From a virus, in the IMG/VR virus record IMGVR_UViG_3300027509_000014: a stretch of DNA of 64,000 bases. One strand, 5' to 3'. The notes under the pieces were generated by a model. The model did no database searches. It saw only the letters and a program-made list of their open reading frames with translations, and was not told the origin of the DNA. The position numbers and the translations under genes were made by a program. Each line of letters opens with the position of its first letter. Position 1 is the stretch's first letter. Shown in pieces: positions 1,798 to 48,373 of the stretch.

Positions 1798-2146
1798 TCA
1801 ATCGAGACGGGGATTCTTCAGAACAGCTGGAGCAGGAGCCGCAGCCACCGCTGTTGCGGTCGCCACTAAGGACATTTCTTTAATCTCACAACCGGAAGAA
1901 GTTGTTAGTGGTGCGATGTGCAAGCCAGCGGAAGTAGAATTTGAGATAACTGGTACGGGTATGGCTGATGATCCGTATGTGTTTGAAGCTGTTGATCTAA
2001 ATGATAAACGTTCGATAACAGTTAGTAGAAGTGAGGGCATCTATACTTATGAATATTCTGATGGAGAAAAAGTTGAAATAGATCATTGCGCTGTAGTACG
2101 ATCTCATTACGAAGACCAACGCAAATTGAAAGGAAATACACAATGA
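1787..2146 (+). CDS. small protein with twin-arginine (Tat)-like signal peptide
   Basis: MSINQSRRGFFRTAGAGAAATAVAVATK. Confidence 0.75.
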   Translation: MSINQSRRGFFRTAGAGAAATAVAVATKDISLISQPEEVVSGAMCKPAEVEFEITGTGMADDPYVFEAVDLNDKRSITVSRSEGIYTYEYSDGEKVEIDHCAVVRSHYEDQRKLKGNTQ

Positions 2147-2670
2147 CGGTATTTGTAGTAGATGTGGAAAGCGATGGCCCCTGCCCTGGGCTTTATTCAA
2201 TGCTTTCTTTTGGAGCAGTGGCTTTGACGCCAGAGTTGGACAGAACATATTATATTGAGCTTAAACCAGTGACTGATAACTTTATACCAGAGGCTTTGGC
2301 TGTTAGCGGACTTGACCGTGAAGGGCTTAGACTTTATGGCCGTGATCCAGCTTGGGCTATGAATAATTTTGCGAGCTGGGTTACCGCAACGTCTAAAGGT
2401 CGACCTGTATTTATATCAGACAACAACGGATTCGATTTCGCTTTCATTAATTATTACTTTCACAAGTTTACCCCAGGAAACCCCTTCGGTTGGTCGAGCA
2501 GGAGATTGGGCGATCTTTGGTGCGGAATGCAAAGCGACACCTTTGCTGGCTGGAAACACCTTAGAGACACCAAGCATACGCACAACGCACTTGACGATGC
2601 TATGGGTAATGCTGAGGTCCTGCTAAAGATGAAAGATATGGGACTAAAGATTAACACGAAGGCAGACTGA
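2143..2670 (+). CDS. DEDDh 3'-5' exonuclease (Rv2179c-like exoribonuclease)
   Basis: VDVESDG (ExoI), NGFDFAF (ExoII), HNALDDA (ExoIII); SD AAGGA before ATG 2143. Confidence 0.85.
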   Translation: MTVFVVDVESDGPCPGLYSMLSFGAVALTPELDRTYYIELKPVTDNFIPEALAVSGLDREGLRLYGRDPAWAMNNFASWVTATSKGRPVFISDNNGFDFAFINYYFHKFTPGNPFGWSSRRLGDLWCGMQSDTFAGWKHLRDTKHTHNALDDAMGNAEVLLKMKDMGLKINTKAD

Positions 2671-2671
2671 T

Positions 2672-2902
2672 ATGGTTATATTTTTTATGCTTTGGGTATT
2701 TATTGGCCTTTGCTTTGCCATTCCAAATCTTGTAGACACATATTATAGAGACGGCTATGGTGGCGTTAAATACGAAGGCAAAAATTATCGCATTGTGAGA
2801 AAAGAATATTATGCTTTCGTTTTTTCAATATTATTTGTTTGTGTGTTGTGGCCACTGTTTACTATATATGATGTATACAACTTTATGGAAGAAAGGCGCT
2901 AA
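2672..2902 (+). CDS. small membrane protein
   Basis: Two hydrophobic segments. Confidence 0.65.
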   Translation: MVIFFMLWVFIGLCFAIPNLVDTYYRDGYGGVKYEGKNYRIVRKEYYAFVFSILFVCVLWPLFTIYDVYNFMEERR

Positions 2903-3197
2903 ATGATATTAATAGACGCCCGACCTCTTCTGGCTTGGCTTGACAATGAAGTTAAGTATGAGGACGCAATCTACTCTCAAGCCATCATAGATGTTATAGA
3001 TCACGTCAAGATGATGTGCGAAACAGAATCTTATGAAGAGGCAGATTTCAGAGACTGAGGTTGGTTTCGTTGCTCAGCAGTATACACTCAAAATATGGCA
3101 AAACCTAATCAGACTATTAAGGGTCTTGACAGAGCTGGCTGGCTGGGGATATGATGTATGGAGACCTGGCAACGATCAAAAGATTTAGAAAGAGAAA

Positions 3198-4403
3198 GTG
3201 GTAGTAACTATGTCCAATCAAATAGAAGTCAAGGCGTACCCAGTGCGCATCGAAGAACACCCAAGTGCCGACAGGCTAGAACTTGCCTTTGTGGGCGACT
3301 TCTCGTCTATTGTGCTCAAGGACAAGCACAAGACTGGCGAGCGAGTTCTGTTCATTCCAGCTATGGCCGTGCTGCCTGAGCCGGTGCTTAGGGGTTGTGG
3401 CCTATGGGACGAAGAAGCCGGTACTGGGGTGTTGTCGGGCAAGGATAAGAATCGGGTTAAGCCAATGAGGCTTAGGTCTGTGCTGTCGGAAGGCATCGTT
3501 GCTTCTTTTGATGACGTTGGTGTCGAAGAGTCTGATGACCCAGACCACAACTATGCCCATGAGCTGAGTATTACTAAGTATACTCCACGCATCCCAGAAA
3601 GCTTCTCCGGCCAGGTTTTTGCTGCTGTGGACTCACCACGTATGTGGGATACTCCAAACATGAAGCATCCTGAATACGTTGATATCTTTTCCGAGGGCGA
3701 GCTTGTCCAGATCACCGAGAAGATTCACGGCACTTGCCTGATTGCTCATTTCGAGCCAGAAGTTTATGGCGAACCCAACAGCGTCGTGTTTACTATTTCT
3801 TCCAAGGGTCAGTCTCAGGGCATGAAGGCCTTGGTTGAGTCCGATGCTAACGTTTACTGGAACGCCGCTCGCAAGTTTTATGTAGAATCAATCTCTGGAT
3901 ATATTTCTACTGTGGCTCAGAACTACGTAAAGCGCAACTGTGAGGGCTATGATGTTGGCGAGCACCCTACTGTGTCTATCTTTGGCGAAGTCTTTGGCCC
4001 CGGCATTCAGGGCGGATTTGCTTATGCCCAAGAAGAGAAAAAGCTGGCTATATTCAGCGTTGTGTTGAACAAGGGTAAGTCAAACGAGTTTGATTTTTCA
4101 GAAGTCTTGTCTTCTGTATTGCTGCGGGAAGCTTCGAGCGTGTTGGGGATTCCCGTTGAGGAGACGCCCATCACCGTTCCGCTTCTTTACAGCGGCCCCT
4201 GGTCGCCAGATTTGCTTGACAAGCATTTGGCAGGCAACAGTGTTGTTAGCAAAATGTTTGACCTCAACGCTGGTCCTGGCAATATTCGAGAAGGTGTTGT
4301 CATCAAAAGCCTTGAAGTCCCACCGGGCGATAGGCCAAAATTTGTCAAAATGCATAGTCCTGATTTCTTAACTCGGGGCGGAGAGGTTACTGAATATGAG
4401 TAG
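3198..4403 (+). CDS. RNA ligase, DRB0094/Rnl5 family
   Basis: N-terminal [12 protein letters not shown]-like domain; TEKIHGT (motif I), [20 protein letters not shown]. Confidence 0.9.
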
Positions 4404-5373
4404 AGTAGTTAATGGTTGTGTGATTAAACCAAACGCTGATTTGCGCAACGCTAATTTGACTGGCGTTGATTTGACTGACGCTAATTTAGCTAGCGCCGAT
4501 TTGACTGACGCTTATTTAAATGGCGCTCGTTTGACTGGAGCTAATTTGCGTGACGCCAATTTGACTGGCGCTCGTTTGACTGGCGCTTATTTGACTGACG
4601 CTGTTTTGACTGGCGCTAATTTAGCTGGCGCTGTTTTAGCTGGCGCTGATTTGACTGACGCTAATTTGCGTGGCGCTGTTTTGACTGGCGCTAATTTAAC
4701 TGGCGCTTATTTAAATGGCGCTAATTTGCGTGACGCCAATTTGCGTGACGCCAATTTGGATCGCGTTAATTTTTACAACGCCAATTTGCTTGGCGCCAGT
4801 TTGCGTGATGCTAATTTGGGTGGTGCTAGTTTGTTTGGCGCTAATTTGCGTGGCGCCAATTTGCGCAACGCCAATTTGCGTGGCGCTAATTTAAATGGCG
4901 CTAATTTGCGTGGTGCCAATTTGCGTGACGCTAGTTTGCTTGGCGCTAATTTAAATGGCGCTGATTTGCGTGAGGCTAATTTGCGTGGCGCTTTTTGGGC
5001 TGAGGCTAATTTGAGTGACGCTTTTTGGGCTGAGGCTAATTTGAGTGGTGTTAATCTTGAGTGCGCTACCCTTCCTGCTGGTTATAACTGGTGGCAGGGA
5101 GGTGCGTTCGGCCCCCGTAAGAGAATGATTAGGGTATTGATTTTATCTGATGATAAATTACACATACAGACTGGTTGTCGAATCCACGATAGCGTCGGCT
5201 CTGCCTGCGCCTTTGTGCAGAGTAGATTTAATGACTGGAAAGCAGAGTACAACTCTGCTGAACGTGCTCAGTTTGAGATAGACTCCGAAATAGCAATAAT
5301 AAATTACGCAGTAGAACTGCTGCAAAAGACTCGTGAGCTAGAGAGAAGATTGACCAATGTCGAAAACAAGTAA
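4396..5373 (+). CDS. pentapeptide-repeat protein with C-terminal domain
   Basis: About 40 A-(N/D)-L-x-x repeats followed by a ...IQTGC... domain. Confidence 0.9.
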
Positions 5374-5635
5374 GAGTCCTAGTAATATTGCTGGTGATTT
5401 AGAACAAGCCGGTGCAGCTATCGAGAAACTAGAAAGTGTTGTTATGTCTATCCATAAAGGAGTAGACAAGATTCTTAATTCTGGTATTTCCGAGTCAGCT
5501 TTGGTAAACATGATCCAGCATGCGGCTCATGGTAAGCCAAAGAAGGCTGATATCATTGCCACAATAGATGGTTTGGCGAATCTTTGGGACTATCTGTACG
5601 GCGAAGACGATGAGCCGTTTCAGGTTCAGCATTAA
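5357..5635 (+). CDS. hypothetical protein
   Basis: ORF in operon context. Confidence 0.65.
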
Positions 5636-5687
5636 TCGGAATCTAAAACAAGTTGCTTTTGGTGGTCATTTAAGATAGGATGCAATC

Positions 5688-6506
5688 ATGAAAGTACTAA
5701 TGGTGGGCGACACCCACGGCAACCCTCGCTGGATGATCAAAGCTGTGTATCCAGCGGCTAAAGCTCTTGAGATAGATTTGATATGCTCCTTAGGTGACTT
5801 CGGTTTTTGGCCAGATCACAACGGGAATAATCCTTTTTTGGATACTGTTTCCGAACTAGCATTTGAATCAGATATTCCGCTTTATTTCATCGACGGCAAC
5901 CACGAGAACCATGACCAGCTTGACCACGATGCCGATGAATTTGTGGAGATCCTTACCAGACTTTACTACATTCCTCGTGGCCATGCTTGGACATGGGGCC
6001 AGACAGACTTTGTGGCGCTTGGTGGTGCTTGGTCTATCGACCACAAGTACCGTACGCTTGGCTTTGATTTATTTAGAGAAGAAGAGCCTGACAAGGCTCA
6101 GATCGAGCGGGCCATGTCACATACGGCTGACGTAGTGCTCACCCATGACTGCACCATCCCGGCCTTTGATTATCTCTATCCTCCCGGCTATGGTCGGGTA
6201 GAGGGCGGCATGGGCACTCGGCGCGCTATTGGCGAAGTTGCAGTCAGTTCTGGCGCAGCGTTAAACATTCATGGCCACCATCATCATAGCTATAGTAAGA
6301 TTGTACGATTGCACGTTGGTCATCCCACTGAAACCTCTTTGCTTTCCGTTGGGCTTGCTAATGAATTCGCCAACAGAAACATGTTGATCCTAAACACTGA
6401 CTTTGATAAAGAAGACCCTAATTGGATCGAAGGATTTGTCCAACCCAAGTGGGGTACATTTCCGCCTGATCAAGGCTACAAAATTAAGAGGCTTGAAGAT
6501 GTATAG
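5688..6506 (+). CDS. calcineurin-like metallophosphoesterase (leaderless)
   Basis: GDTHG, GDFG, GNHEN, THD, HGHHH motifs; TTGCTT-N17-TAGGAT promoter ends 6 nt before the ATG. Confidence 0.9.
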   Translation: MKVLMVGDTHGNPRWMIKAVYPAAKALEIDLICSLGDFGFWPDHNGNNPFLDTVSELAFESDIPLYFIDGNHENHDQLDHDADEFVEILTRLYYIPRGHAWTWGQTDFVALGGAWSIDHKYRTLGFDLFREEEPDKAQIERAMSHTADVVLTHDCTIPAFDYLYPPGYGRVEGGMGTRRAIGEVAVSSGAALNIHGHHHHSYSKIVRLHVGHPTETSLLSVGLANEFANRNMLILNTDFDKEDPNWIEGFVQPKWGTFPPDQGYKIKRLEDV

Positions 6507-6762
6507 GATTTTATCAGAAGGCAATTTGCTTTATAGCGACAAGCACGGATATGCTTTTGTTCATTCATATTGCTGCAATGAGAATGAATCTATTAAATCT
6601 ATTAAGAGGCTTAGGTTGGAAGAAGTCGACGAAAGACCTCTTGTTCTGGCGACTCGCTCAGGCCAGCCTGCTTGGTTTATCAGAGTGGGCAAAGACGGCA
6701 CGTTGGAAGATTCTGATGGAACCTTCTGGGAAGAGAAAGTGGATTATGATTATGTCAGATGA
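6499..6762 (+). CDS. hypothetical protein
   Basis: ATG overlaps the end of the previous gene. Confidence 0.55.
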   Translation: MYRILSEGNLLYSDKHGYAFVHSYCCNENESIKSIKRLRLEEVDERPLVLATRSGQPAWFIRVGKDGTLEDSDGTFWEEKVDYDYVR

Positions 6763-7183
6763 TAGAGACAGTAATAATGTCGAAACCAGCGGTTTCGAAG
6801 CTTGGGCTAGTGGGCCGGTGCATAGAAAGCTTTGGGCGTCAATGGTAAAGTTTAAACATCCTGTGTACAAAGACAATACACTTGTCATGGTTGGGGATAT
6901 GGTTAGGCTAGCCCACACAGATAAGCATATGGGTGGTGACTATATGGTGCTTAATATTAGGGCTGAGCAGAGGGGGCTGGCTGAGGAACCAGTAGTCGAG
7001 CTTGGCGAGCCTTTCGAGGACCCCAAAGATGTTGTGACCGCCTATGCTTCATCTAAGTTGTCTTTGTCTGACTTGGGCGATATAGTGAGGGCAACGCCCA
7101 CTTTTGATTTCAACAAGCTAAGCCATTGGTCTGAATATAGACCAGATATGGAAGGAAAATCCTGGGAACCTTCTGTTGTTTAA
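6752..7183 (+). CDS. hypothetical protein
   Basis: ORF in operon context. Confidence 0.6.
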   Translation: MSDDRDSNNVETSGFEAWASGPVHRKLWASMVKFKHPVYKDNTLVMVGDMVRLAHTDKHMGGDYMVLNIRAEQRGLAEEPVVELGEPFEDPKDVVTAYASSKLSLSDLGDIVRATPTFDFNKLSHWSEYRPDMEGKSWEPSVV

Positions 7184-7211
7184 ATAACAGATATGGATAA
7201 GGAAGTGAAAT

Positions 7212-7937
7212 GTGACTAAGTCAGATGATATTTATAAGCCTACCGATCATTATTGGAAGGCAATGGAAATAGATATTGATATTTGCGAAGAGATAGCTAA
7301 GACCTTGACTGGTCAGGACGATAACGGTAATTTCACTAGACCTGGCCAAAACGTAGCCGTAGTAACGGTTGGTATTTCAGGTTCTGGAAAAACCACTCTT
7401 GCCAACGAAGTCGCTTCCGGTGCTGGATTTGCCGCCACCCAAATTGCTTCTGAGTCGAACTATGGCGGTCCTCAGATTTTGGGTTCCTTTATTCGACTTT
7501 CGAGAGATTCTGTCCGAGATGCTTTATCTAACGGTGAATATTCTGGAGACAATATTTGGGATTGGTCAAGAGAAGAAGAAGTCACTGAATACATTGACGA
7601 TGCGCTAGATTATCTCAGTGAAACTGATCAGCCAAAACACTTAGTCTTGTTTGACGACACGAATCTTAATTCTCGATTCTTTCCACAAATGATTGATAAA
7701 CTTCACGGCTTGGGGTATAAGATCTTTGAAAAAAAGCTGCATACTCCGGTTGATGTATGTGTTAAGCGTATTGTGGATCGATATCATGAGACCGGGCGCG
7801 CTGTGCCGATGAAGGTTTTGGCTTCTCAAATCAAAATGTTTTATGGTAACGAGACGGCAAATGAAATATTAGCCGAACCTGAGATTGTAGAATTAATGAC
7901 TTGGGCTGATAAAGAAATGGAAATCAACAATGGCTAA
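7212..7937 (+). CDS. P-loop kinase, polynucleotide kinase (AAA_33)-like
   Basis: GISGSGKTT Walker A; RLSRDSVR; FDDTN; lid CVKR. Confidence 0.85.
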   Translation: MTKSDDIYKPTDHYWKAMEIDIDICEEIAKTLTGQDDNGNFTRPGQNVAVVTVGISGSGKTTLANEVASGAGFAATQIASESNYGGPQILGSFIRLSRDSVRDALSNGEYSGDNIWDWSREEEVTEYIDDALDYLSETDQPKHLVLFDDTNLNSRFFPQMIDKLHGLGYKIFEKKLHTPVDVCVKRIVDRYHETGRAVPMKVLASQIKMFYGNETANEILAEPEIVELMTWADKEMEINNG

Positions 7938-8013
7938 ATCAACAATGGAGATCAACAATGGAGATCAACAATGGAGATCAACAATGGAGATCAACAATGA
8001 GCGAATCAACAAT
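7921..8013 (+). repeat. tandem 13-bp repeat AGATCAACAATGG; 7 copies of the ATCAACAATG core
   Basis: Read directly; junctions form GGAG-N7-ATG. Confidence 0.95.
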
Positions 8014-8968
8014 GACTGAAGATGTTCAAAAAGGCTGGAAGATAACCGAACTAGACGGGACAACTTATGACGGCTACCGCTGGCCGCTTCCTATGCCTGG
8101 GGAAATAGTAAAGGTCATGGCTGACGATCCCTATATTTCAAATACCTCAGCCTGCCCCAGCTATCCCGGAGACGGTCTCTGCGTCGTCAGGGAAGGAATT
8201 TATCGCCACGTCACATCGGGAGGCATTAGTCTTAATCGTTCTATAGGGCTTAAGCTTGAGTGGGACAAAAAAGACGAGCTTGGTCATGAAGATAACGAAA
8301 AAATCCGTGTTCGAGAAGTAGAAGTAATTGGTATTTTTGATCCTATAAAGGCTCTCAGAGAAGGAGGAATGATTATAGCCAATAATGATGGCTTGCGTGA
8401 CGCTAATTTGCGTGGCGCTGATTTGCTTGGCGCCGATTTGACGGGCGCCGATTTAAATTACGCTAATTTGGGTCGCGCTGTTTTGGCTGGCGCTGTTTTG
8501 GGTGGCGCTGTTCTGACTGGCGCTAATTTGCGTGACGCCAATTTGGCTGGCGCTCGTTTGGCTGGCGCCAATTTGTTTGGCGCTGTTTTGACTGGCGCTG
8601 ATTTGTTTGGCGCTGTTTTGCGCCACGCTAATTTGCGTGGCGCTAGTTTGTTTGGCGCTAATTTGCGTGGTGCTGTTTTGACTGGCGCTAATTTGCGCAA
8701 CGCTGATTTGACTGACGCTCGTTTGACTGGCTCTAATTTGCGTGACGCTAATTTAATTGGCGCTAATTTGACTGACGCTGTTTTAACTGGCGCTGATTTG
8801 CGTGGCGCTAATTTGCGTGACGCCGATTTGCGTAGCGCCGATTTGGATCGCGTTAATTTTTACAACGCCAATTTGACTGGCGCTAGTTTGTTTGGCGCTG
8901 ATTTGCGTGGCGCTAGTTTGGCTGGCGCAATTCATTCAAATCAAGCTGAATTAAAGCCATATGTCTAA
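7997..8968 (+). CDS. pentapeptide-repeat protein with N-terminal domain
   Basis: About 135-aa non-repeat domain, then about 35 A-x-L-x-G/D repeats; last GGAG-N7-ATG gives start 7997. Confidence 0.88.
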   Translation: MSESTMTEDVQKGWKITELDGTTYDGYRWPLPMPGEIVKVMADDPYISNTSACPSYPGDGLCVVREGIYRHVTSGGISLNRSIGLKLEWDKKDELGHEDNEKIRVREVEVIGIFDPIKALREGGMIIANNDGLRDANLRGADLLGADLTGADLNYANLGRAVLAGAVLGGAVLTGANLRDANLAGARLAGANLFGAVLTGADLFGAVLRHANLRGASLFGANLRGAVLTGANLRNADLTDARLTGSNLRDANLIGANLTDAVLTGADLRGANLRDADLRSADLDRVNFYNANLTGASLFGADLRGASLAGAIHSNQAELKPYV

Positions 8969-9064
8969 AATAAGAAACGCTGGCCCTAAAGAAAGCCAAG
9001 TTGTGCTCGCTTTCGGACGAAGAACTTGATAAGCTAATAGCTATATCTACAGAAAGAGAAATCT

Positions 9065-9274
9065 ATGGTTAGCAATTTAGAGTTTCAAAAATCTAGTGCT
9101 AGGCCGAGCAAACTTGGCCCTAAGTCAATTTTAACTTCAGAGCAGATAACGACAAGTGATGAAATAGATCTTTTGTATGAAGCTATTAAAATGCTAGATG
9201 GCGGAAATATAGCTTTGAGCGCCGCCGCTAAGATTATAGCAAACAGAATCAAAGAACGAGAAGGCATAAAGTAA
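9065..9274 (+). CDS. hypothetical protein
   Basis: ORF in operon context. Confidence 0.55.
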   Translation: MVSNLEFQKSSARPSKLGPKSILTSEQITTSDEIDLLYEAIKMLDGGNIALSAAAKIIANRIKEREGIK

Positions 9275-9275
9275 A

Positions 9276-10034
9276 GTGAACGACGTAGACAAGATTAAAG
9301 CAGACGCCGATGCCAGGGATGAAGAGATCCTGCTTATGGGTGTGACTGGCTCAACAGCCTATGGATTGGCTCACGCTGACTCTGACATCGATCGACTGGG
9401 CATCTATGCTGTGCCCACGGAGCGGGTGTTTGACATTGGCTGGAACCAAGGCAAGGCTTCTCGGGTAAGCAACGATCCAGATGTTCAGCTTCACGAAATC
9501 GGCAAGTATCTCAAGCTCATTCTCTCCGGCAATCCAACAATCACCGAACTGCTCTATTTGAATGAATATGATATTGGGCCAAAGACTGATGTTGGATACA
9601 ATGGCTATTGGTCAGGTCGGCTTATGACCAATAGGCAAAAGTTAACCAGCACCAAGGCTGTCAAGGAAGCTTATGTTAGTTATGCTGTAGCTCAAGCCAA
9701 TCGACTAGCTAATCGTCAAGAGAATGGCCAGAAGGGATTTAACTCAGACCTAGCCAAACGCACGGCTAAGCACGGCCGACACTGCTTTAGACTGCTCCTG
9801 CAGGCCGAGCAACTGCTCACCGAGGGTACGATAACCATTGATGTTTCTGGGCACAGAGACGAGCTATTCTCAATGGGTGAGCTAGCTGAAACGAATGTGT
9901 CAAAGTTCCAAGAGGTATTTGAGACTCGCAAGCAAGAAATTGATAACATGGAGTCAGTATTGGCTGATGATCCAGACTACGAATTTGTTCAAGATTTTCT
10001 GAGAAAATTTAGAAAGTCAAGATTGAGAAGATAA
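9276..10034 (+). CDS. Pol-beta-like nucleotidyltransferase, Nuc-transf/RlaP family
   Basis: GSTAYGLAHADSDIDRLGIY; HEIGKY...NPTITELL. Confidence 0.88.
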   Translation: MNDVDKIKADADARDEEILLMGVTGSTAYGLAHADSDIDRLGIYAVPTERVFDIGWNQGKASRVSNDPDVQLHEIGKYLKLILSGNPTITELLYLNEYDIGPKTDVGYNGYWSGRLMTNRQKLTSTKAVKEAYVSYAVAQANRLANRQENGQKGFNSDLAKRTAKHGRHCFRLLLQAEQLLTEGTITIDVSGHRDELFSMGELAETNVSKFQEVFETRKQEIDNMESVLADDPDYEFVQDFLRKFRKSRLRR

Positions 10035-15155: not shown

Positions 15156-15485
15156 ATGAGCCAGACTACAAGAAAGATCACCAAGACATCCCAAGTGTTG
15201 CGTGGTGCAATTGAAATGATTAAGCGCCATGGGTACTGTAAGGGCCAAATGTTAGCCAACGATGGTTCGATGTGCGGTTATGGCGCTATGAGTTTCTATA
15301 TGCATGCTCAAAAATTTGATAGAGATCTCTTTTTTGATGCAGAGTCAGAGATGACCAAAGACATACACCGCTTAACTGATTTCAATTACATTTCCGCTTT
15401 CAACGATGCCGGAGAAACCACTCGTACTGACGTGCTCCGCATGATGGGTACTACGGCGAGACGCCTAGAGAAGGAAGGCCGATAA
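15156..15485 (+). CDS. DUF6197-like small protein (paralog 2)
   Basis: Last 127 bp differ from 12840-13157 at 6 positions. Confidence 0.75.
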   Translation: MSQTTRKITKTSQVLRGAIEMIKRHGYCKGQMLANDGSMCGYGAMSFYMHAQKFDRDLFFDAESEMTKDIHRLTDFNYISAFNDAGETTRTDVLRMMGTTARRLEKEGR

Positions 15486-16216
15486 TGACAGACTCAAACA
15501 ACGCCGGGCACTTGAACGTTGGGGACCACAACGCCGGGGACCACAACGCCGGGGACTACAACGCCGGGCACTACAACGCCGGGCACTACAACGCAGGGGA
15601 CCGCAACGCAGGGAGCCGCAACACCGGGCACTTCAACACCGGGCACTACAACGCCGGGAGCAGCAACGCAGAACACAGCAACACCGGGAGCAGCAACGCA
15701 GGACACAGCAACACTGGGCACTGCAACATCGGGCACCGCAACACCGGAAGCTACAACACCGGGAACTACAACGCCGGAAGCTACAACGCCGGGGACCATA
15801 ACATTGGATATTTCATGACCGGTAAAAACACCTCAATGGTGCCGGTGTTCAACAATTCGGCCATGGTCGACCGCAATGAATTCATTGACGCTTTGCCCGT
15901 CTGGATCGACAGTATTGGTTCAGGAACTGAGTGGGTGGAGGCGGAAGAAATGACTGACCAAGAAAAGCTATCTCATGCCGATTACAAAACGACTGGTGGG
16001 TTCTTGCGTGTAGTGTCTTTGCCGGAAGCGTTTGCCAAAGCCTGGGCCGAAGATGAAGCCCAAGACGTAGGACTAGTTGAGGCTCTGCCTGGTTTTGATC
16101 GTGATGTATGGCTAGAAATTACTGAGCTTGATCTGTGGTCTGACGCCGAACCGCCCTGCCGTCCATCAGAAGTAGTGATCGATGGCGTACGCTATGTGAA
16201 GGCTAAGGACCAATGA
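15485..16216 (+). CDS. N-(A/T)-G-x-x pentapeptide-repeat protein with conserved C-terminal domain
   Basis: 21 NxGxx units, then MTDQEK...DYKTTGGFL...LPGFD...EITEL domain. Confidence 0.85.
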   Translation: MTDSNNAGHLNVGDHNAGDHNAGDYNAGHYNAGHYNAGDRNAGSRNTGHFNTGHYNAGSSNAEHSNTGSSNAGHSNTGHCNIGHRNTGSYNTGNYNAGSYNAGDHNIGYFMTGKNTSMVPVFNNSAMVDRNEFIDALPVWIDSIGSGTEWVEAEEMTDQEKLSHADYKTTGGFLRVVSLPEAFAKAWAEDEAQDVGLVEALPGFDRDVWLEITELDLWSDAEPPCRPSEVVIDGVRYVKAKDQ

Positions 16217-18720: not shown

Positions 18721-19272
18721 ATGGAAATCAACATGACCAACCAAACGTTCGACATATCCATTCCGGTAGAGGGCACAAACGTGACTCTATCAGCTTCCGG
18801 TAGTGGTGATTTGGATTACGCAATAACCGTCTTGAAAGGACTGGCCACTGCCGCTAATAGCATTGGCGCAGAAAGCTTGACCCAACATGCTGATCGCATC
18901 GCAGCTATGTTTCCTGACTACAAAATTCCAGCGATCAAAGAGTTGCGCAATTTTATTGGTACTTCCAATCTGGGACTCAAGGAGGCCAAGGAGTTGATTG
19001 AAGATGCCCAAATGCGAGCACGCGTTTCCAAAACAGTAGACATTGATGAGGTTGCGATTAGAGCCAAAAGGGCCGGAGCCGACCGCATTATAGCCCGCTT
19101 TCCAGAGGATCAAAAGACTCACGCTGTTAGGGAAATGCGTAGCGCTTATTCAATGACCCTAAAACAAGCCAGAGATTTCATTTGGGAGGCTTACGGTCGA
19201 GCAGGCATTGAGGTTAAAGATTATCGAGATAATCGTCCTGAAACAGTAGACATTGATGAGGTTATGGGTTAA
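18721..19272 (+). CDS. protein with two ribosomal bL12 (L7/L12) C-terminal-like motifs
   Basis: KIPAIKELRNFIGTSNLGLKEAKELIE and KTHAVREMRSAYSMTLKQARDFIW. Confidence 0.65.
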   Translation: MEINMTNQTFDISIPVEGTNVTLSASGSGDLDYAITVLKGLATAANSIGAESLTQHADRIAAMFPDYKIPAIKELRNFIGTSNLGLKEAKELIEDAQMRARVSKTVDIDEVAIRAKRAGADRIIARFPEDQKTHAVREMRSAYSMTLKQARDFIWEAYGRAGIEVKDYRDNRPETVDIDEVMG

Positions 19273-22639: not shown

Positions 22640-22871
22640 AAGGTCTCACTGAAAGAGAAATCAATTTCATTATTGAATGCATGGATAGCCATATTGGATA
22701 TGTCGCTAATGAACTCAATCGTGGTGTTAAAGGGATGGCTGAGCTTGAAGATTCTATCATTCAAAAGCTGAATCTGCAGGAGGATTTATAACGAGATAGC
22801 TGTATAGTGATGCCACCAACAACCCAGGGGACACTGGGGATATCGAGGCCAGAAGTACTGGCCCTGAACTA

Positions 22872-22951
22872 GCCTCCGTACCGAGCGGGCCTTCTAAGCT
22901 TGACATTCGTAGTGGAAGTTGAAATCGCAGGTTCGAATCCTGCCGGGGGCG
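22872..22951 (+). tRNA. D-arm-less tRNA-like RNA, anticodon TCT (Arg), long variable region
   Basis: Acceptor GCCTCCG/CGGGGGC; loop CTTCTAA; T-arm GCAGG-TTCGAAT-CCTGC; only 7 nt between acceptor and anticodon stems. Confidence 0.6.
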
Positions 22952-22976
22952 CTAATCAAATAGGAGATATAAAAAC

Positions 22977-23735
22977 ATGAGTCATTTTTCAGTCATCGTA
23001 ATTGGCGATAACGTCGAAGAGCAACTACAGCCATATCACGAATATGAATGCACCGGCATTAGAGATCAGTACGTCGTACACGTAGATATTACCAATGAGG
23101 TAGTCGAGAGCCACAAGGATCATTTAGGCAGGTGGCCATTGCTTGCTGACTTTGCAAAGGATTACTACGGAGCCGACATTAACCCAGACGGCACTATCAT
23201 TCGATACACAAACCCAAACGCTCAGTGGGACTGGTGGTGCATTGGTGGTCGCTGGTCTGGCTGGCTTGGGCTTAACCAGGGCCTGCGTAAGGATTTTGAC
23301 TTCGAAGGGATCGAGGCAGCAAAACGCCTAGAGGCTGCTGCGGATTACGCATACTACTGCCCCGAGGGTGAGCCGCCATTGCTGTGGGATCAATATCGTG
23401 AACAGTTTGACACTATTGATCTTGCCCGCTCAGCTTGGGCGGAAGAACCAATGGTCAAAGAAATCAGACGAAGGGCAAGCGCTCGCGACACCTTCATAAT
23501 GAGACCGGACAAATATTTTGTCCCAGTAGAAGAATTTGTCAACGCAGCCGCCGCTGGCTCCATAGTGCCCTACGCTATGGTAATGGAAGGCGTTTGGTCG
23601 TCTAAGGGCGAAATGGGCTGGTTTGGCATTTCTGACGACAAGGTAAGCCAAGAAGAGTGGAACACTAAGGCTCGGAATATTTTGCTAAACGTTCCTGACG
23701 ATATGCTCATCACCGTAGTGGATTGCCACATCTGA
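22977..23735 (+). CDS. conserved phage hypothetical protein
   Basis: MSHFSVIV...NPNAQWDWWCIGGRW...MGWFG...VVDCHI pattern. Confidence 0.8.
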   Translation: MSHFSVIVIGDNVEEQLQPYHEYECTGIRDQYVVHVDITNEVVESHKDHLGRWPLLADFAKDYYGADINPDGTIIRYTNPNAQWDWWCIGGRWSGWLGLNQGLRKDFDFEGIEAAKRLEAAADYAYYCPEGEPPLLWDQYREQFDTIDLARSAWAEEPMVKEIRRRASARDTFIMRPDKYFVPVEEFVNAAAAGSIVPYAMVMEGVWSSKGEMGWFGISDDKVSQEEWNTKARNILLNVPDDMLITVVDCHI

Positions 23736-23839
23736 TAAAAAGAAAATTGCAAAAGAGGTTGCAAAGCAATCTCGAACACGCTAAAGTAATCATTGTTAGC
23801 CAAAGAGGCTAACGATAAACAAATAGGAGATACAAAGAA

Positions 23840-24244
23840 ATGACTACCAAGACCCGAGCTTATGTTCACAATCCAGCCAAGCCTGCTGACTTCCTGACTC
23901 GCCTGCTAAACCGTGGCGTCGTCAACGTTGATTTGGCCAAAGCTGTGGAACAGTACGCAGCCGAAGGCGTGACTCGCACCGAAGATCAGGTTGCCAACAA
24001 CGTTCGTGCAGCTATCCGCATGGCTGGCAACCAGATGTTTGCTGGCGCACTCGACACCAAGATCACCGGCTCCAAGCTGCGCATCGAACTCAACGGCCAG
24101 CCCGTTGCTGTACCCGCTGACAGCTTTCCTAAGGTGCTTTCCAACATGATTAACAACGGCAAGAAGGTCAGCCCGACCATCGCCGCCGCTGTGGCTGCTG
24201 TTGGCGGTCCTGCACTTCCGGTCAATCCTCAGGCCAAGGTGTAA
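23840..24244 (+). CDS. hypothetical protein
   Basis: TTGCAA-N17-TAAAGT promoter; AGGAGA SD. Confidence 0.75.
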   Translation: MTTKTRAYVHNPAKPADFLTRLLNRGVVNVDLAKAVEQYAAEGVTRTEDQVANNVRAAIRMAGNQMFAGALDTKITGSKLRIELNGQPVAVPADSFPKVLSNMINNGKKVSPTIAAAVAAVGGPALPVNPQAKV

Positions 24245-24316
24245 AGATCTATCCACCGCAGAGCCGGATCAATTTAGGGACGTGATAGACCCTATACACA
24301 AGGTTCGTGCGGTTGG

Positions 24317-24385
24317 TCCTCACTAGCTCAACTGGTAGAGCTGGCCCGAAGGGGTTGAGACTGGGTTCAAGTCCCAGGTGAGGAA
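24317..24385 (+). ncRNA. tRNA-like RNA lacking an anticodon loop
   Basis: Acceptor TCCTCAC/GTGAGGA; D-arm GCTC-AACTGGTA-GAGC; T-arm CTGGG-TTCAAGT-CCCAG; only 19 nt between D and T arms, containing a CCC-GAA-GGG mini-hairpin. Confidence 0.75.
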
Positions 24386-24400
24386 CTCGTTTAAACCAAT

Positions 24401-24456
24401 CTAGAAATTCCTACCCCTTGTTGTTGTTCCCTCAGGGGTAGGAATTTCTACTTTTT
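24401..24456 (+). terminator. intrinsic terminator
   Basis: TAGAAATTCCTACCCCT/AGGGGTAGGAATTTCTA 17-bp stem followed by CTTTTT. Confidence 0.85.
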
Positions 24457-24503
24457 ATATAAACCACGTTGCAATGCCCTATTCGATCCGATAAGATGTC
24501 TTT

Positions 24504-24761
24504 ATGGAAACCACACAGAATGCCAATCCAATCCGCCGCATCGTCGTACTGGTGCCAACGGCAACTAATATCCCCGAAATCGAGCGTATCGAGGCCTACC
24601 TCTACGGCAACTTCGAAGTCACCGATCAGCGTCGTGAGTCCATGCTGGACGATCACTACACCGAGGTCACCATCTCGGGTCGTGACTCTGCTGGCTTCAC
24701 CGCAGAAGCTCAGGCCGATAGGTTGTGGTCTGGCATGATTGGTGCTAGAGTAGTGGCGTGA
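24504..24761 (+). CDS. hypothetical protein (leaderless)
   Basis: TTGCAA-N17-TAAGAT-N6-ATG. Confidence 0.75.
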   Translation: METTQNANPIRRIVVLVPTATNIPEIERIEAYLYGNFEVTDQRRESMLDDHYTEVTISGRDSAGFTAEAQADRLWSGMIGARVVA

Positions 24762-25165
24762 AGAACCTCGCCCGAGCCGAAGGCGCAGAGCCGGTAGATC
24801 ATCAGGTCTCAACCGAGCTAACAAACGCCGGTATAGACACCCACATTTCGCCATTTGCGATTCCTGGCGAGGTGCCCACCAGCGTCTTTGGCCTAGTTGG
24901 CCCCTGGCGCTTCATAAGGGCTTGGCGCTATTGGGTCGCAGAAGGCCCTGGCATTCCAGTAAAGCTCGCAGAGCAGCTATGGGAGTCTCACGGCAAGCAA
25001 GTGAGGGTTAGGGGCCACGCTGGTGGTATGACGCCCAGAAATCAGTACGATGGCTTTGGCGTAGGCATGTATCACGTGGATACTATCGAAGGCCTAAGGG
25101 CTTTGGCCGACGTAATCAAATTGATTGTGAGAGAAAATCAAATTGTTCTTGACTCACGCAATTAA
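24758..25165 (+). CDS. hypothetical protein
   Basis: GTG overlapping previous stop; WRFIRAWRYWVAEG...YHVDT pattern. Confidence 0.7.
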   Translation: MKNLARAEGAEPVDHQVSTELTNAGIDTHISPFAIPGEVPTSVFGLVGPWRFIRAWRYWVAEGPGIPVKLAEQLWESHGKQVRVRGHAGGMTPRNQYDGFGVGMYHVDTIEGLRALADVIKLIVRENQIVLDSRN

Positions 25166-25202
25166 CGCTATAGAGTGTGTGAAGAACTAAAGGAGTAGCA
25201 CA

Positions 25203-26000
25203 ATGGAAACTAAAGACTTGAAGCATGAGGTAGAACAGCTTGGACCTATCGAGTTAGAAGATCTTGATATGCAGATCTTAAAGGTCGGAGGTTGTGTGCG
25301 AGACGAGATTATGGGCACGCCTACCAAGGATGTTGACTTTGTCGTTCTTGTAGATTTGGAGCGTTTTACTACAGTTGAAGAAGGCTTCAACCATATGTAC
25401 TCAGAGCTTCAGATGGCTGGATTCAAGATTTTTGTGGAAACCCCCGAGCACGCCACCATACGTGCTCAGTTCCCGCCTCACATGCGTGACGCCTTTGGAG
25501 GGGTGCGTGACGCAGACTTTGTACTCGCACGCAGAGATGGCCCCTACACCGATGGTCGCAGACCTGACTGGGTGAAGCTGGGCACGCTAGAAGATGATTT
25601 GGCCAGGCGTGATTTCACCATGAACGCCATTGCTCAAGATTCAAACGGCAACCTGATTGATCCCTATCATGGCCAGGTTGACATTAGCGTCAAGGTGCTG
25701 GAATTTGTGGGTGCCCCCATGGATCGTATCACCGAGGACGCTTTGCGTGTTATACGTGGGCTTCGCTTCATGATCACCAAAGACCTTGTAGCATCGCCCA
25801 GCGCGTGGAGCGCTATGTTGAGCGATGAGTCTGCAAAGGCCCTAGCTCTCATTGCTGAAGAGCGAAGAGAGTCAGAGCTTCGCAAGATGATCGAACATGA
25901 TCCTATTGAAGCGATCAGCCTGTTGGATTCTTTGCCACGAGGGTTGCGGGAAGCTATCTTTGCTGGTAGGGTGAGGCTCACAACAACACTGAAGAAGTGA
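25203..26000 (+). CDS. cca: class II tRNA nucleotidyltransferase (CCA-adding/poly(A) polymerase family), short form
   Basis: VGGCVRD, DVDFVV, EDDLARRDFTMNAIA, EDALRVIRGLRF. Confidence 0.88.
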   Translation: METKDLKHEVEQLGPIELEDLDMQILKVGGCVRDEIMGTPTKDVDFVVLVDLERFTTVEEGFNHMYSELQMAGFKIFVETPEHATIRAQFPPHMRDAFGGVRDADFVLARRDGPYTDGRRPDWVKLGTLEDDLARRDFTMNAIAQDSNGNLIDPYHGQVDISVKVLEFVGAPMDRITEDALRVIRGLRFMITKDLVASPSAWSAMLSDESAKALALIAEERRESELRKMIEHDPIEAISLLDSLPRGLREAIFAGRVRLTTTLKK

Positions 26001-26048
26001 CAACAACGCTAAAGAATTAAAATCGACCCGTAGTAACATTGGCACGAC

Positions 26049-26195
26049 TCGCCGCAACCGGCTCCTACCTAGGATGGAGCGTATCGCTTGCAAAGAGTAC
26101 GGCTAGGAACAAATTCATAGACCAAAGCCACAGATCTTTTATCCGGTGTGGTGGGCAAACTATGCGTTGGTGAGTTCGACCCTCACCTGCGGGAC
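26049..26195 (+). ncRNA. possible expanded tRNA-like RNA
   Basis: T-arm GGTGAG-TTCGACC-CTCACC; 3' TGCGGGA pairs with TC(G)CCGCA at 26049; 5-bp hairpin at the D-arm position. Confidence 0.35.
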
Positions 26196-46461: not shown

Positions 46462-46507
46462 ATTTATGAGATTAGCACAGGTGCAGTGGCTTGTCAAGTT
46501 GATTGAG

Positions 46508-46588
46508 AGCGTGGAGGGGGATTCGAACCCCCGAAGCTTTCGCATGTGGGTTGCAACCACATCCCTTTGTCCGCTTAGGTATCCACGC
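46508..46588 (-). tRNA. tRNA-Cys(GCA) with extended variable arm
   Basis: Cloverleaf; loop TTGCAAC; U73; CCA not encoded. Confidence 0.88.
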
Positions 46589-46590
46589 GT

Positions 46591-46668
46591 TGGTAGCTCC
46601 CCTGGGACTCGAACCCAGACTGTCCACTGTTTGAAGGTGGTGCCTCCTGCCAATTGGGCTAGAGAGCC
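46591..46668 (-). tRNA. tRNA-Leu(CAA), short variable loop, CCA encoded
   Basis: Loop TTCAAAC; A73; T-loop TTCGAGT. Confidence 0.8.
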
Positions 46669-46679
46669 ATATAATTTTG

Positions 46680-46752
46680 TAGCCCTACTCGGATTCGAAC
46701 CGAGACTGTAAGATGTTTAAGATCTTTTTCTCTGCCTTTGGAATACAGGGCC
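46680..46752 (-). tRNA. tRNA-Leu(TAA), short variable loop
   Basis: Stem AAGAT/ATCTT; loop CTTAAAC; A73. Confidence 0.85.
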
Positions 46753-46770
46753 GTGATTATTGATTTTAAG

Positions 46771-46845
46771 TGCCGATGATGGGAGTCAGGCCCATAAATT
46801 TTGTCGTTTTAGGGACAACACCTTTGCCTGTTTGATCACATCGAC
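46771..46845 (-). pseudogene. degenerate tRNA (8-nt anticodon loop CCTAAAAC, T-loop CCTGACT)
   Basis: Acceptor GTCGATG/CATCGGC and stems intact; loops non-canonical. Confidence 0.65.
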
Positions 46846-46846
46846 C

Positions 46847-46933
46847 TGGTACTTACGATGGGAGTCGAACCCATACGAGGTTTCCCTCACAGCCCCCTCA
46901 AGGCTGCGCGCCTACCAATTACGCCACGTAAGT
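46847..46933 (-). tRNA. tRNA-Leu(GAG), long variable arm, CCA encoded
   Basis: Loop TTGAGGG; canonical class II cloverleaf. Confidence 0.92.
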
Positions 46934-46937
46934 ATAG

Positions 46938-47019
46938 TACTCTCGATGGGAGTCGAACCCATACACCTCAAGGATACTGGTTCCTAAGACCAGCGCGTCT
47001 ACCATTCCGCCACGAGAGC
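46938..47019 (-). tRNA. tRNA-Leu(TAG), long variable arm
   Basis: Loop CTTAGGA; canonical class II cloverleaf. Confidence 0.92.
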
Positions 47020-47142
47020 AAAATTTGTTGAATGGTCTCTAACTAGAGAGCCTGGGTCTTAAACGCTCAGGAGCGCGAATAAACCGGCTGAGATACAACA
47101 CAATAAGTTGCTTAACTTTGAAAGGTTCGTTCGCATAGGTTC

Positions 47143-47171
47143 CAGTATAGCAGGTCGAAATACGCCGGTCA
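47143..47171 (-). promoter_or_regulatory. sigma70-type promoter for the tRNA cluster
   Basis: TTGACC-N17-TATACT on the minus strand. Confidence 0.75.
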
Positions 47172-47173
47172 AG

Positions 47174-47677
47174 CTATTCATCAATATTTTTTCCAAAGTC
47201 TGTTATTCCCATGGCTAACGCCAAAGCCCGCTGCTCGTGTGGCAGTAGATACAGTTCGTCAAAGTCTCTCCTGGATAAATCTGTGTTGTGCCTTCGATAC
47301 TTCGCAAGCAAGTTGAACATAGTAGCACAATGCACTCTATCTTCAAGAGTTAGAGCTTCCCATCTCTCAAGCTCTTTGGAATTCATTTTGCTAGTCGAGT
47401 GTGCGCTGGCCCCGTTCGGATATTTATTAACAAATACAGCTTTAAGAAAGTCATCTAAAATATTATTTGCCGAATTCATTAACGTAGACAGTCTTTCAAA
47501 ACCTATCTTGAAAATCAAAATTCCTAAGCCTATGAGCAGTATTGTAAATTCATAAGCCGCCAGTGTTAAATAAGCGACACCAAAAAAGAATCCCAGCACC
47601 CACCCTGTTGATTGGACGCACATTGTAACAAAAACAATGGCGGGCAATATATTTTTAATATCTTTTAGGTGTTTCAT
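47174..47677 (-). CDS. membrane protein
   Basis: N-terminal hydrophobic helices. Confidence 0.7.
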   Translation of the reverse strand: MKHLKDIKNILPAIVFVTMCVQSTGWVLGFFFGVAYLTLAAYEFTILLIGLGILIFKIGFERLSTLMNSANNILDDFLKAVFVNKYPNGASAHSTSKMNSKELERWEALTLEDRVHCATMFNLLAKYRRHNTDLSRRDFDELYLLPHEQRALALAMGITDFGKNIDE

Positions 47678-47695
47678 TGTTCAACTATATTATTT

Positions 47696-48115
47696 TCAAA
47701 CGGAGATGGCAACCTTTTCGGCCAACTTTTCTCTTCTGTGTTTAGTTCTCATCCTGTGGCAGTTAGCGCATACCAGTTCGCACTTATCTATTTCTTTAAG
47801 AATGGTTTTCCAGCCATTTCTATTATCGACCATTGCAGAAATAGAGCTTACCTTTGCCCCTCTGGATTCTATATGATCGAATTCCATAACTTCAGTATCA
47901 TACGACATACCGCAATCTTCGCAAGGAGTCTTTCTCTTTATATCTGAAACCCTATCTCTATATTCAGCTTTCCTTTCCTTGCTTCTCTTCGAATGGCAGG
48001 CTTTGCACATATTGCGAATACCGTTCTTGCTATTTTTCTTTTTGCCAAATTCAGACACCAACTTTTCGATACCGCAAAACCGGCAAAATTTATTATTTGA
48101 TTCTTCAGAAGGCAA
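47696..48115 (-). CDS. HNH endonuclease
   Basis: CRFC...CKAC; CEDC...EFDH...LVCANCHR. Confidence 0.85.
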   Translation of the reverse strand: MPSEESNNKFCRFCGIEKLVSEFGKKKNSKNGIRNMCKACHSKRSKERKAEYRDRVSDIKRKTPCEDCGMSYDTEVMEFDHIESRGAKVSSISAMVDNRNGWKTILKEIDKCELVCANCHRMRTKHRREKLAEKVAISV

Positions 48116-48300
48116 AGCGGCTCACAGTCGAATTATCCACTATATGGATAATATTATTCAAATAGTGGATACGTGCGAGTCCGGGGTTCATATTGTCGCA
48201 GATTATACACTGTGTGTGTCGATAAGTCAATACCAATATAAAAATTAAATCACCCGCCAAGTTTGCACTTGACGGGTGTATGCCTAGGGGCATATTTAAG

Positions 48301-48373
48301 AGGCGCAGTTTGGATTCGAACCAAAAATTCAGGCTTATGAGGCCAGCGTCGTACCAGATTGGACCACCGCGCT
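48301..48373 (-). tRNA. tRNA with CAT anticodon (elongator Met or Ile2)
   Basis: Loop CTCATAA; no GGG/CCC initiator stem; A1:C72 mismatch. Confidence 0.8.

Follow-up and report, generated by a model that had tools for sequence, protein, structure and literature searches.

Positions 22872-26195 of IMGVR_UViG_3300027509_000014, a viral sequence of 64,000 nucleotides (nt) whose whole analysed length is called the window below, hold a gene for a short tRNA nucleotidyltransferase of the CCA-adding type and, around it on the same strand, three genes for tRNA-like RNAs (RNA1, RNA2 and RNA3). A preliminary description of this DNA had taken the four elements together for a dedicated system that matures tRNA mimics. 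Here, we analyse the enzyme, the three RNAs and their counterparts in other viruses, and on balance favour a more ordinary explanation, in which a general CCA-adding and repair enzyme lies among tRNA-derived look-alikes of a kind already recorded in phages. The elements that carry the argument, together with the canonical tRNA genes of the window, are as follows (bp, base pairs; aa, amino acids).

22872-22951, plus strand: RNA1, a tRNA-derived RNA with a perfect 7-bp acceptor, a 5-bp T-arm (loop TTCGAAT) and discriminator G (Rfam, scans, folding)
24317-24385, plus strand: RNA2, a tRNA-shaped RNA with four fully paired stems, a GAAG tetraloop for an anticodon loop and discriminator A (ARAGORN, folding)
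25203-26000, plus strand: class II tRNA nucleotidyltransferase (CCA-adding type), 265 aa, predicted head and neck only (profiles, alignment, AlphaFold model)
26027-26194, plus strand: RNA3, 168 nt, with a perfect 7-bp acceptor, T-arm GTGAG-TTCGACC-CTCAC and discriminator A (scan, folding)
46507-48373, minus strand: six tRNA genes (Cys, four Leu anticodons, Met; ARAGORN and Rfam)

The short nucleotidyltransferase and its family

The 265-aa protein matches PF01743, the PolyA_pol head domain, with E=2.8e-18 (66.9 bits, cut-off 23), and phrog_24229, 'tRNA nucleotidyltransferase', with E=1.7e-50 over profile positions 7-216 of 245; no HD domain match was returned by the profile searches. Its best phmmer matches in the PDB are bacterial CCA-adding enzymes, residues 109-236 aligning with 83-208 of the 404-aa enzyme of B. 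stearothermophilus (1MIV). The catalytic motifs A-E, GGxVRD (residues 29-34), DxD (43/45), RRD (135-137), DxxxG (D153/G157) and EDxxR (178-182), coincide with the invariant residues of a 50-homologue alignment, in which G29, G30, R33, D34, D43, D45, R135, R136, D137, E178, D179 and R182 are invariant or nearly so, and these residues also align with 1MIV. An AlphaFold model built from the homologue alignment reached a predicted local distance difference test score (pLDDT) of 93.9; a single-sequence fold with a pLDDT of 44 was not used. Superposed on the class II CCA-adding enzymes 1MIV, 6QXN and 4X4W, the model gives template modelling (TM) scores of ~0.65-0.7 over the query but only ~0.47 over the targets, the superposition spanning the whole query and about half of each target, and the C-terminus lies ~30 residues past the neck. 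Because the TM score is high over the query and low over the targets, and the alignment with 1MIV is partial, the model indicates that head and neck are present and that body and tail are absent, in agreement with the preliminary description. The phage enzyme thus has in common with the bacterial class II enzymes (1MIV and the Planococcus enzyme 6QXN) the head/neck fold and the DxD, RRD and EDxxR motifs, whereas the bacterial proteins measure ~370-420 aa and grip the tRNA elbow with the body and tail domains that it lacks. We also considered the anti-Gabija nucleotidyltransferase Gad2 (PF26128) and rejected it, as PF01743 and two noise matches were the only profiles matched up to an E of 10.

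A length of 265 aa appears to be normal for a large phage family and not peculiar to this phage, judging from protein searches that returned more than 1,700 homologues (the best 120 measure 232-300 aa, mostly ~250 aa) and from a tblastn search that located the family, annotated as tRNA nucleotidyltransferase, in 441 isolated phage records. Among the best matches listed, the nearest proteins show 55-58% identity and come from Logan assemblies, while cyanophage S-CBWM1 gp018 and phage B23 gp209 (phrog_24229 / phrog_2244) resemble the enzyme at 39-46% identity, with ~245-265 aa and the same motifs. Phage CCA-adding enzymes have been placed among RNA-repair functions (PMC7824862).

Members of this family usually belong to phages rich in tRNAs, and many adjoin arrays of ordinary tRNA genes. 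The entire contigs of five close homologues carry 50, 33, 0, 27 and 27 ordinary tRNAs, and in 34 of the 160 homologue loci ordinary tRNAs lie within 3.5-4 kb of the enzyme gene. In the cultured cyanophage S-CBWM1 the homologous gene adjoins a metallophosphoesterase gene and stands directly upstream of an array of 21 tRNAs; there, it heads normal tRNAs, whereas the neighbours of the enzyme in the window are three non-canonical RNAs. At eight loci, including those of the closest homologues, no tRNA-like match was detected within 4 kb (Rfam, E up to 5), and none of the 160 homologous-enzyme loci shares a neighbouring protein with the window. The preliminary description had proposed conserved co-occurrence of gene and RNAs as a check on its reading; since close relatives of the phage are absent from the data, co-occurrence was assessed at the level of the enzyme family, and there it did not hold.

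Three tRNA-like RNAs and their counterparts in other viruses

In a strict scan, a 7-bp acceptor with no more than two G-U pairs had to adjoin a fully paired 5-bp T-stem whose loop reads TTCRANN, all within 220 nt. The window yielded nine matches, namely RNA1-3, one overlapping artefact and five of its six tRNAs, against a mean of 0.33 in Markov-shuffled sequence. Likewise, a scan for the T-arm only, with G53-C61, returned exactly nine sites, the six tRNAs and RNA1-3, against 0.3 expected. All 36 acceptor and T-stem pairs are intact across the three RNAs, and, apart from the scanner, RNA1 was found independently by Rfam and RNA2 by ARAGORN. RNA1, RNA2 and RNA3 occupy the three widest non-coding gaps of the stretch (185, 259 and 226 nt, respectively), on the coding strand and among same-strand genes.

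On the Rfam tRNA model RF00005, RNA1 scores 32 bits in a search of the region (gathering score 29), in an alignment that deletes the D-arm, places an insertion of ~20 nt in the variable region (24 nt) and yields the loop CUUCUAA. An alternative fold has a 5-bp D-stem, an 11-nt loop with GGG, a bulged 5-bp arm and a 6-nt 'anticodon' loop; its energy is -27.0 kcal/mol, against -25.3 kcal/mol for the D-armless fold, and its pair probability in the partition function is ~0.36 against ~0.03. Because the partition function prefers the D-stem cloverleaf, the 'D-armless' RNA of the preliminary description is one of two readings of RNA1: that it is tRNA-derived and non-standard stands, but the missing D-arm belongs to the less favoured fold. 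Under neither fold is RNA1 a standard decoder, as it earns its RF00005 score only as the D-armless alignment and the alternative fold lacks a 7-nt loop; at default settings, ARAGORN did not call it. The 5′ part contains CCGAGCGG, with which class II D-arms usually start, and a similar version occurs in the phage's own tRNA-Cys, which suggests that RNA1 descends from a tRNA with a long variable arm.

RNA2, a cloverleaf, is the clearest of the three. Besides its four paired stems it has U8, a GG in the D-loop and UUCAAGU as T-loop. It folds far better than shuffled sequence, with a minimum free energy of -31.7 kcal/mol and z=-3.4; of 200 shuffles, one folds equally well. ARAGORN reports it as 'tRNA-???' with the anticodon undefined, and the GAAG tetraloop takes the place of the anticodon loop, so that the anticodon-less RNA of the preliminary description is borne out. 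Up to an E of 10, neither RNA2 nor RNA3 matches RF00005, and the match of RNA2 to the mascRNA/MEN-beta model RF01684 is weak (18.6 bits, gathering score 42.5). The 64-nt hairpin domain on the 5′ side of RNA2 does not reach significance (z=-1.5).

RNA3 corresponds to an element that had been placed at 26049-26195 and described as a T-arm with a bulged acceptor. The T-arm is indeed present, but the acceptor is a perfect 7-bp helix, in which CCCGTAG (from 26027) pairs with CTGCGGG (26187-26193) directly 3′ of the T-arm, and the element begins at 26027, 27 nt past the stop codon of the enzyme gene, and ends at 26194. The 5′ acceptor strand is followed by U-A, matching tRNA positions 8 and 9, and an insert of ~130 nt, which has no Rfam match, stands in place of the D and anticodon arms. 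Other identities were tried for RNA3 and rejected: a transfer-messenger RNA (tmRNA, RF00023), because its acceptor has C1-G72, C2-G71 and C3-G70 and not G3:U70, and no tmRNA match was obtained; and a Y-RNA-like RNA or an intron-bearing tRNA, neither of which has Rfam or ARAGORN support. The sole call in the area comes from an intron model at a low threshold, which sets the 5′ end elsewhere, within the enzyme gene.

As the preliminary description had stated, none of the three RNAs encodes CCA (the trailers read G-CUA, A-CUC and A-CUA), and the canonical tRNA cluster lies ~20 kb from RNA1-3 and the enzyme gene. The cluster is on the opposite strand. In it, CCA is encoded in two of the six tRNAs, so that seven of the nine tRNA-type genes in the window lack it, and the four normal tRNAs without CCA would therefore equally be clients of a CCA-adding enzyme. 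Class II CCA-adding enzymes recognize a tRNA by its acceptor/T-arm minihelix. Because RNA1-3 encode no CCA and their minihelices are intact, they plausibly need post-transcriptional CCA addition, which the adjacent enzyme could supply. Among the normal tRNAs, at 46507-46752 and 48300-48373 on the minus strand, we also observed that tRNA-Cys(GCA) measures 82 nt and has a long variable arm, that the variable loops of the tRNAs bearing the Leu anticodons CAA and UAA are short and of class I type, and that the top pair of the tRNA-Met acceptor is an A1xC72 mismatch.

Non-canonical tRNA-like RNAs recur in other viruses. When viral contigs were searched with a pattern for tRNA-likes whose D-arm and T-arm are separated by too few bases, sporadic examples came to light, one of which, with a 4-bp stem and a tetraloop, is much like RNA2. 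Complete viral genomes (L082/L086/L090, L087 and L091) hold tRNA-likes with 12-20 nt from D-arm to T-arm, in which the anticodon arm is missing or cut to a tetraloop, and carry no gene for a CCA-adding enzyme. In all, five viral contigs with non-canonical, mostly anticodon-truncated tRNA-likes (at least 93% complete; four of them from the pattern search) have no PF01743 protein. Taken with the survey of loci, these five contigs indicate that the enzyme goes with tRNAs generally and that look-alikes occur without it.

A looser and weaker, non-exclusive association between the enzyme and non-canonical tRNA-likes does recur. In the marine contigs L005, L006 and L128 an odd tRNA-like lies 10 nt past the homologous enzyme gene and is followed by two more; one of the two, a 62-nt tRNA-like at L005:5329-5394, aligns with no part of the Rfam tmRNA model but its 5′ and 3′ ends (23 bits). 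In L009, a tRNA-like of 69 nt whose 'anticodon' loop has 5 nt is placed 139 nt downstream of the enzyme gene, with tRNA-His on one side and tRNA-Ser on the other, and its acceptor (CCCGAUG / UGUCGGG-A-CUA) resembles that of RNA3. Two tRNA genes near the enzyme, at L138:4641-4755 and L018:1340-1445 (minus strand), have anticodon-loop inserts of 43 and 36 nt. In all these contigs the odd RNAs near enzyme genes are mixed with normal tRNAs. The layout of the window, an enzyme gene and scattered same-strand tRNA-type genes among small open reading frames (ORFs), is that of L005-L009 and S-CBWM1; the window differs in that every tRNA-type gene neighbouring its enzyme is non-decoding.

Several further RNAs were observed in these contigs. 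The anticodon-loop insert of the L138 tRNA holds a second T-arm-like sequence, GGGTTCGAATCCC. Marine phage contigs L007 (5053-5138) and L009 (4738-4823) carry, directly downstream of the enzyme gene, an 86-nt tRNA-His(GUG) whose variable arm is long. The segment L014:7045-7384, ~2.4 kb from another homologous enzyme gene, matches the tmRNA model over its full length but below threshold (37 bits, gathering score 47). At L096:952-1048 ARAGORN predicts a tRNA of 97 nt whose anticodon has four bases (agag); it lies ~3 kb upstream of a homologue of ORF 22977-23735.

The closest parallels are the tRNA-like stable RNAs of T-phages. The record of T5 (AY543070) labels both RNA1 and RNA2 'tRNA-like stable RNA with unknown functions' and calls RNA3 a 'putative tRNA-like RNA'; as in the window, these RNAs sit among dispersed tRNA genes and small early ORFs. 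Like RNA3 of the window, T5 RNA1 (144 nt) and RNA2 (125 nt) combine paired, acceptor-like ends and a canonical T-arm with long inserts, while T5 RNA3, of 73 nt, is tRNA-sized like RNA1 and RNA2 of the window. There are also differences: compared by eye and without alignment, the two sets show no evident sequence similarity; the T5 region inspected holds no gene for a CCA-adding enzyme; and the T5 RNAs lie within the main tRNA region, whereas those of the window lie 20 kb away from theirs. T4 has two small stable RNAs of unassigned function, rnaC and rnaD (species 1 and 2), at the end of its tRNA cluster, and rnaC (139 nt) ends in the canonical T-arm CCGGG-UUCGAAU-CCCGG, although it gave no clean 7-bp acceptor when folded here. 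T4 depends on the CCA-adding enzyme of its host. With paired ends, a canonical T-arm, a non-decoding middle and a place among early or tRNA genes, RNA1-3 fit the architecture of the tRNA-like stable RNAs of phages.

Eukaryotes also offer likenesses. In mascRNA and MEN-beta a tRNA-like top half is combined with a non-decoding lower half, and these RNAs are processed by RNases P and Z and tailed with CCA; as they are eukaryotic, the likeness to RNA2 is an analogy only. The t-elements of plant mitochondria are intergenic tRNA-like folds at which cuts by RNases P and Z make mRNA ends (Forner et al. 2007, PMC1920247), and once released they gain non-encoded C, CC or CCA (PMC1920247). These elements are organellar, and the RNAs of the window are likened to them by their intergenic, same-strand position only. 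For tetraloop-capped tRNA-likes of phages, we found no description in the literature.

Proposed roles of the enzyme and the look-alikes

The interpretation of the locus draws on further features of the window.

2086-10034, plus strand: RNA-repair gene set (weak DEDD exonuclease match, RNA ligase, metallophosphoesterase, P-loop kinase, RlaP nucleotidyltransferase)
22823-22863, plus strand: two small hairpins (22823-22838 and 22847-22863) just 5′ of RNA1 (sequence, folding)
23759-23787 and 24469-24497, plus strand: candidate promoter boxes similar to those before the enzyme gene, TTGCAA-17-TAAAGT / TAAGAT (sequence)
24403-24457, plus strand: candidate intrinsic terminator after RNA2, a 16-bp hairpin with a T-run (read by eye)
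25149-25176, plus strand: sigma-70-like candidate promoter TTGACT-16-TAGAGT before the enzyme gene (sequence scan)

We consider it somewhat probable that the locus combines a general CCA-adding and repair enzyme with tRNA-derived look-alikes of the kind represented by T5 RNA1-3 and T4 rnaC. The enzyme would be an ordinary member of its family, in a phage-specific short clade, and would add or restore C-C-A on any RNA with an acceptor/T-arm helix; its substrates would comprise the four CCA-less phage tRNAs, the three look-alikes and, probably, host tRNAs with clipped 3′ ends. On the last of these it would work beside the RNA-repair genes 15-23 kb upstream, a gene set that we propose as context for a tRNA-repair role of the enzyme. 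On present evidence, the enzyme and the RNAs each belong to kinds already seen in phages, and the locus defines no new system.

What the look-alikes themselves do can be said more tentatively: they may act mainly as processing signals for the flanking messages, a reading suggested by analogy, to which we give rather less than even credence. The RNAs would be transcribed within early polycistronic RNAs, host RNase P would cut on their 5′ side and 3′-processing enzymes on the other, and the CCA tail would be added afterwards. Like the t-elements of plant mitochondria, they would thereby serve as cleavage signals that split the neighbouring mRNAs and define their ends. The hairpins at 22823-22863 would, after the RNase P cut, end up as the protected 3′ end of the upstream mRNA, and the small RNAs set free would persist as stable by-products or serve in a second role. 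The hairpin at 24403-24457 would be the terminator that closes a transcription unit ending in RNA2; a simple terminator scan with a loop limit of 8 missed it and found nothing else, and Rfam gives this palindrome a spurious microRNA-type match. The fold and motifs of the enzyme, the architectures of the RNAs and their departure from chance, their lack of encoded CCA and the distribution of the enzyme family are observed; expression, cleavage, CCA tailing and the punctuation role of RNA1-3 are what we infer.

A number of points weigh against this explanation. Neither RNA1 (z=-0.4) nor RNA3 (z=-0.9) exceeds shuffled sequence in stability, and the perfect top halves are partly a matter of ascertainment, as the scanner required them. 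No relative is near enough for covariation analysis (TerL at most 30% identical in IMG/VR, and both metagenome scans without a syntenic locus), and since a relative of covariation grade is lacking, we can only infer that RNA1-3 are produced and processed. Standalone binding of tRNA by an enzyme predicted to lack body and tail is presumed only, and our literature search found no biochemical study of the short phage nucleotidyltransferase clade. Finally, a punctuation role leaves unexplained both the complete D-arm/T-loop elbow of RNA2 and the clustering of three non-canonical genes within 3.3 kb round the enzyme, 20 kb from the canonical tRNAs.

Two alternatives seem to us unlikely to a similar degree. 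The first holds that RNA1-3 are decaying remnants, functionless relics of a former tRNA array round the enzyme gene. It is indeed common for dispersed tRNA genes on the same strand to flank an enzyme gene (L005-L009, S-CBWM1), sub-threshold tRNA-likes make up ~3-10% of the matches in the arrays of other phages, and RNA1, with its retained class II D-arm motif CCGAGCGG, resembles a tRNA with an internal deletion. Neutral decay, however, should hit stems too, whereas 36 of 36 acceptor and T-stem pairs are intact, every stem of RNA2 is perfect with its loop neatly 3 nt shorter, and the phage genome is otherwise compact; the argument from intact pairs is weaker than it looks, because the scanner demanded such pairs. 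The second holds that the mimics are counter-defence decoys, absorbing host effectors that attack the acceptor end or elbow of tRNAs, while the enzyme regenerates the 3′ ends of mimics and real tRNAs. Defences that cut tRNAs outside the anticodon have been published: Cas12a3 cleaves tRNA 3′ tails (PMC12851939), and Septu cuts the tRNA variable loop, a decoy role having been discussed (PMC13096335). The mimics retain the parts that such effectors would see and drop the decoding part, and the window holds an RNA-repair kit; but no defence target has been identified for the host, conservation is lacking, and three single-copy genes would compete with the whole cellular tRNA pool.

A tighter version of the decoy idea, in which the enzyme and the three top-half mimics would form a counter-defence pair, the mimics being sacrificial and the enzyme, needing the acceptor helix only, re-tailing them along with real tRNAs, appears improbable to us; were it true, it would explain why all the non-decoding tRNA-type genes cluster at the enzyme.

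Equally improbable, in our view, is the dedicated system of the preliminary description, in which maturation of the three mimics would be what the short enzyme specifically evolved for, and the four parts would form one functional module. The arrangement speaks for it, in that a single strand holds the mimics and the enzyme within 3.3 kb, apart from the canonical tRNAs, with RNA3 27 nt past the enzyme stop, and in that tRNA-likes follow the homologous gene at 10 nt in L005/L006/L128 and at 139 nt in L009. Yet the enzyme family is widespread and occurs in tRNA-rich phages beside normal tRNA arrays, some loci, including those of the closest homologues, have no tRNA-like neighbours, five viral genomes have non-canonical tRNA-likes and no enzyme, the odd RNAs in L005-L009 are mixed with normal tRNAs, and the normal tRNAs of this phage need CCA as well. 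Hence, the CCA requirement of RNA1-3 and its supply by the enzyme remain plausible, but the family distribution and the CCA-less normal tRNAs leave the word 'dedicated' unsupported. As three non-decoding genes cluster at the enzyme, a small probability of a real functional pairing remains.

That RNA1 is a working but unusual decoder, D-armless, with a long variable arm and the anticodon UCU reading AGA/AGG, is very unlikely: its 32-bit score does exceed the Rfam gathering score, the 7-nt loop CUUCUAA has U33 and A37, and G73 with a long variable arm recalls class II tRNAs such as the tRNA-Ser after the enzyme gene in L007, L009 and L011, but the anticodon stem contains two G-U pairs and has a pair probability of ~0.03 against ~0.36 for the rival fold, there is no D-arm to form an elbow, and ARAGORN at default settings passes it over.

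The present findings bear on an old question, since the tRNA-like stable RNAs of T4 and T5 have been known for decades without an assigned function. The locus is a clean example of such RNAs, with three architectures placed round a minimal CCA-adding enzyme in a genome that has an RNA-repair kit, and could serve as a test bed for the substrate needs of a CCA-adding enzyme without body and tail, and for distinguishing punctuation from decoy or other roles of the RNAs.

The phage and its other genes

Capsid and terminase genes are recognizable within the 64-kb window, and its source is a large tailed phage without a close relative in the collections searched. The capsid protein is only ~22-29% identical to actinophage capsids, and TerL at most 30% identical to proteins in IMG/VR. 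Megablast of the region studied here against 50,697 phage records gave zero matches. IMG/VR scans with the enzyme, ORF 22977-23735 and TerL as queries reached at most 49%, 36% and 30% identity, respectively, the neighbours never being in common. Of the two metagenome scans, the one with ORF 23840-24244 as query gave zero matches, and the one with the 265-aa enzyme gave partial matches only, of at most 56% identity, at no syntenic locus. Homologues of ORF 24758-25165 are restricted to Ralstonia jumbo phages.

Three pentapeptide-repeat proteins are encoded on the plus strand at 4396-5373, 7958-8968 and 15485-16216, two of them within the RNA-repair gene set. A 183-aa ORF at 18721-19272 (plus strand) partially matches the C-terminal domain of ribosomal protein L7/L12 (E=1.9e-9, profile positions 8-38 of 67), and may be a translation-factor-binding mimic or a composition artefact.

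ORF 25203-26000, which encodes the enzyme, is preceded by a good ribosome-binding site. In addition, the window contains the motif ACGCTAWAG four times, where 0.9 occurrences would be expected. The motif shares bases with the -10 boxes of promoters in this area, and its plus-strand copies at 23778, 25165 and 26006 each lie just upstream of a gene or of RNA3.

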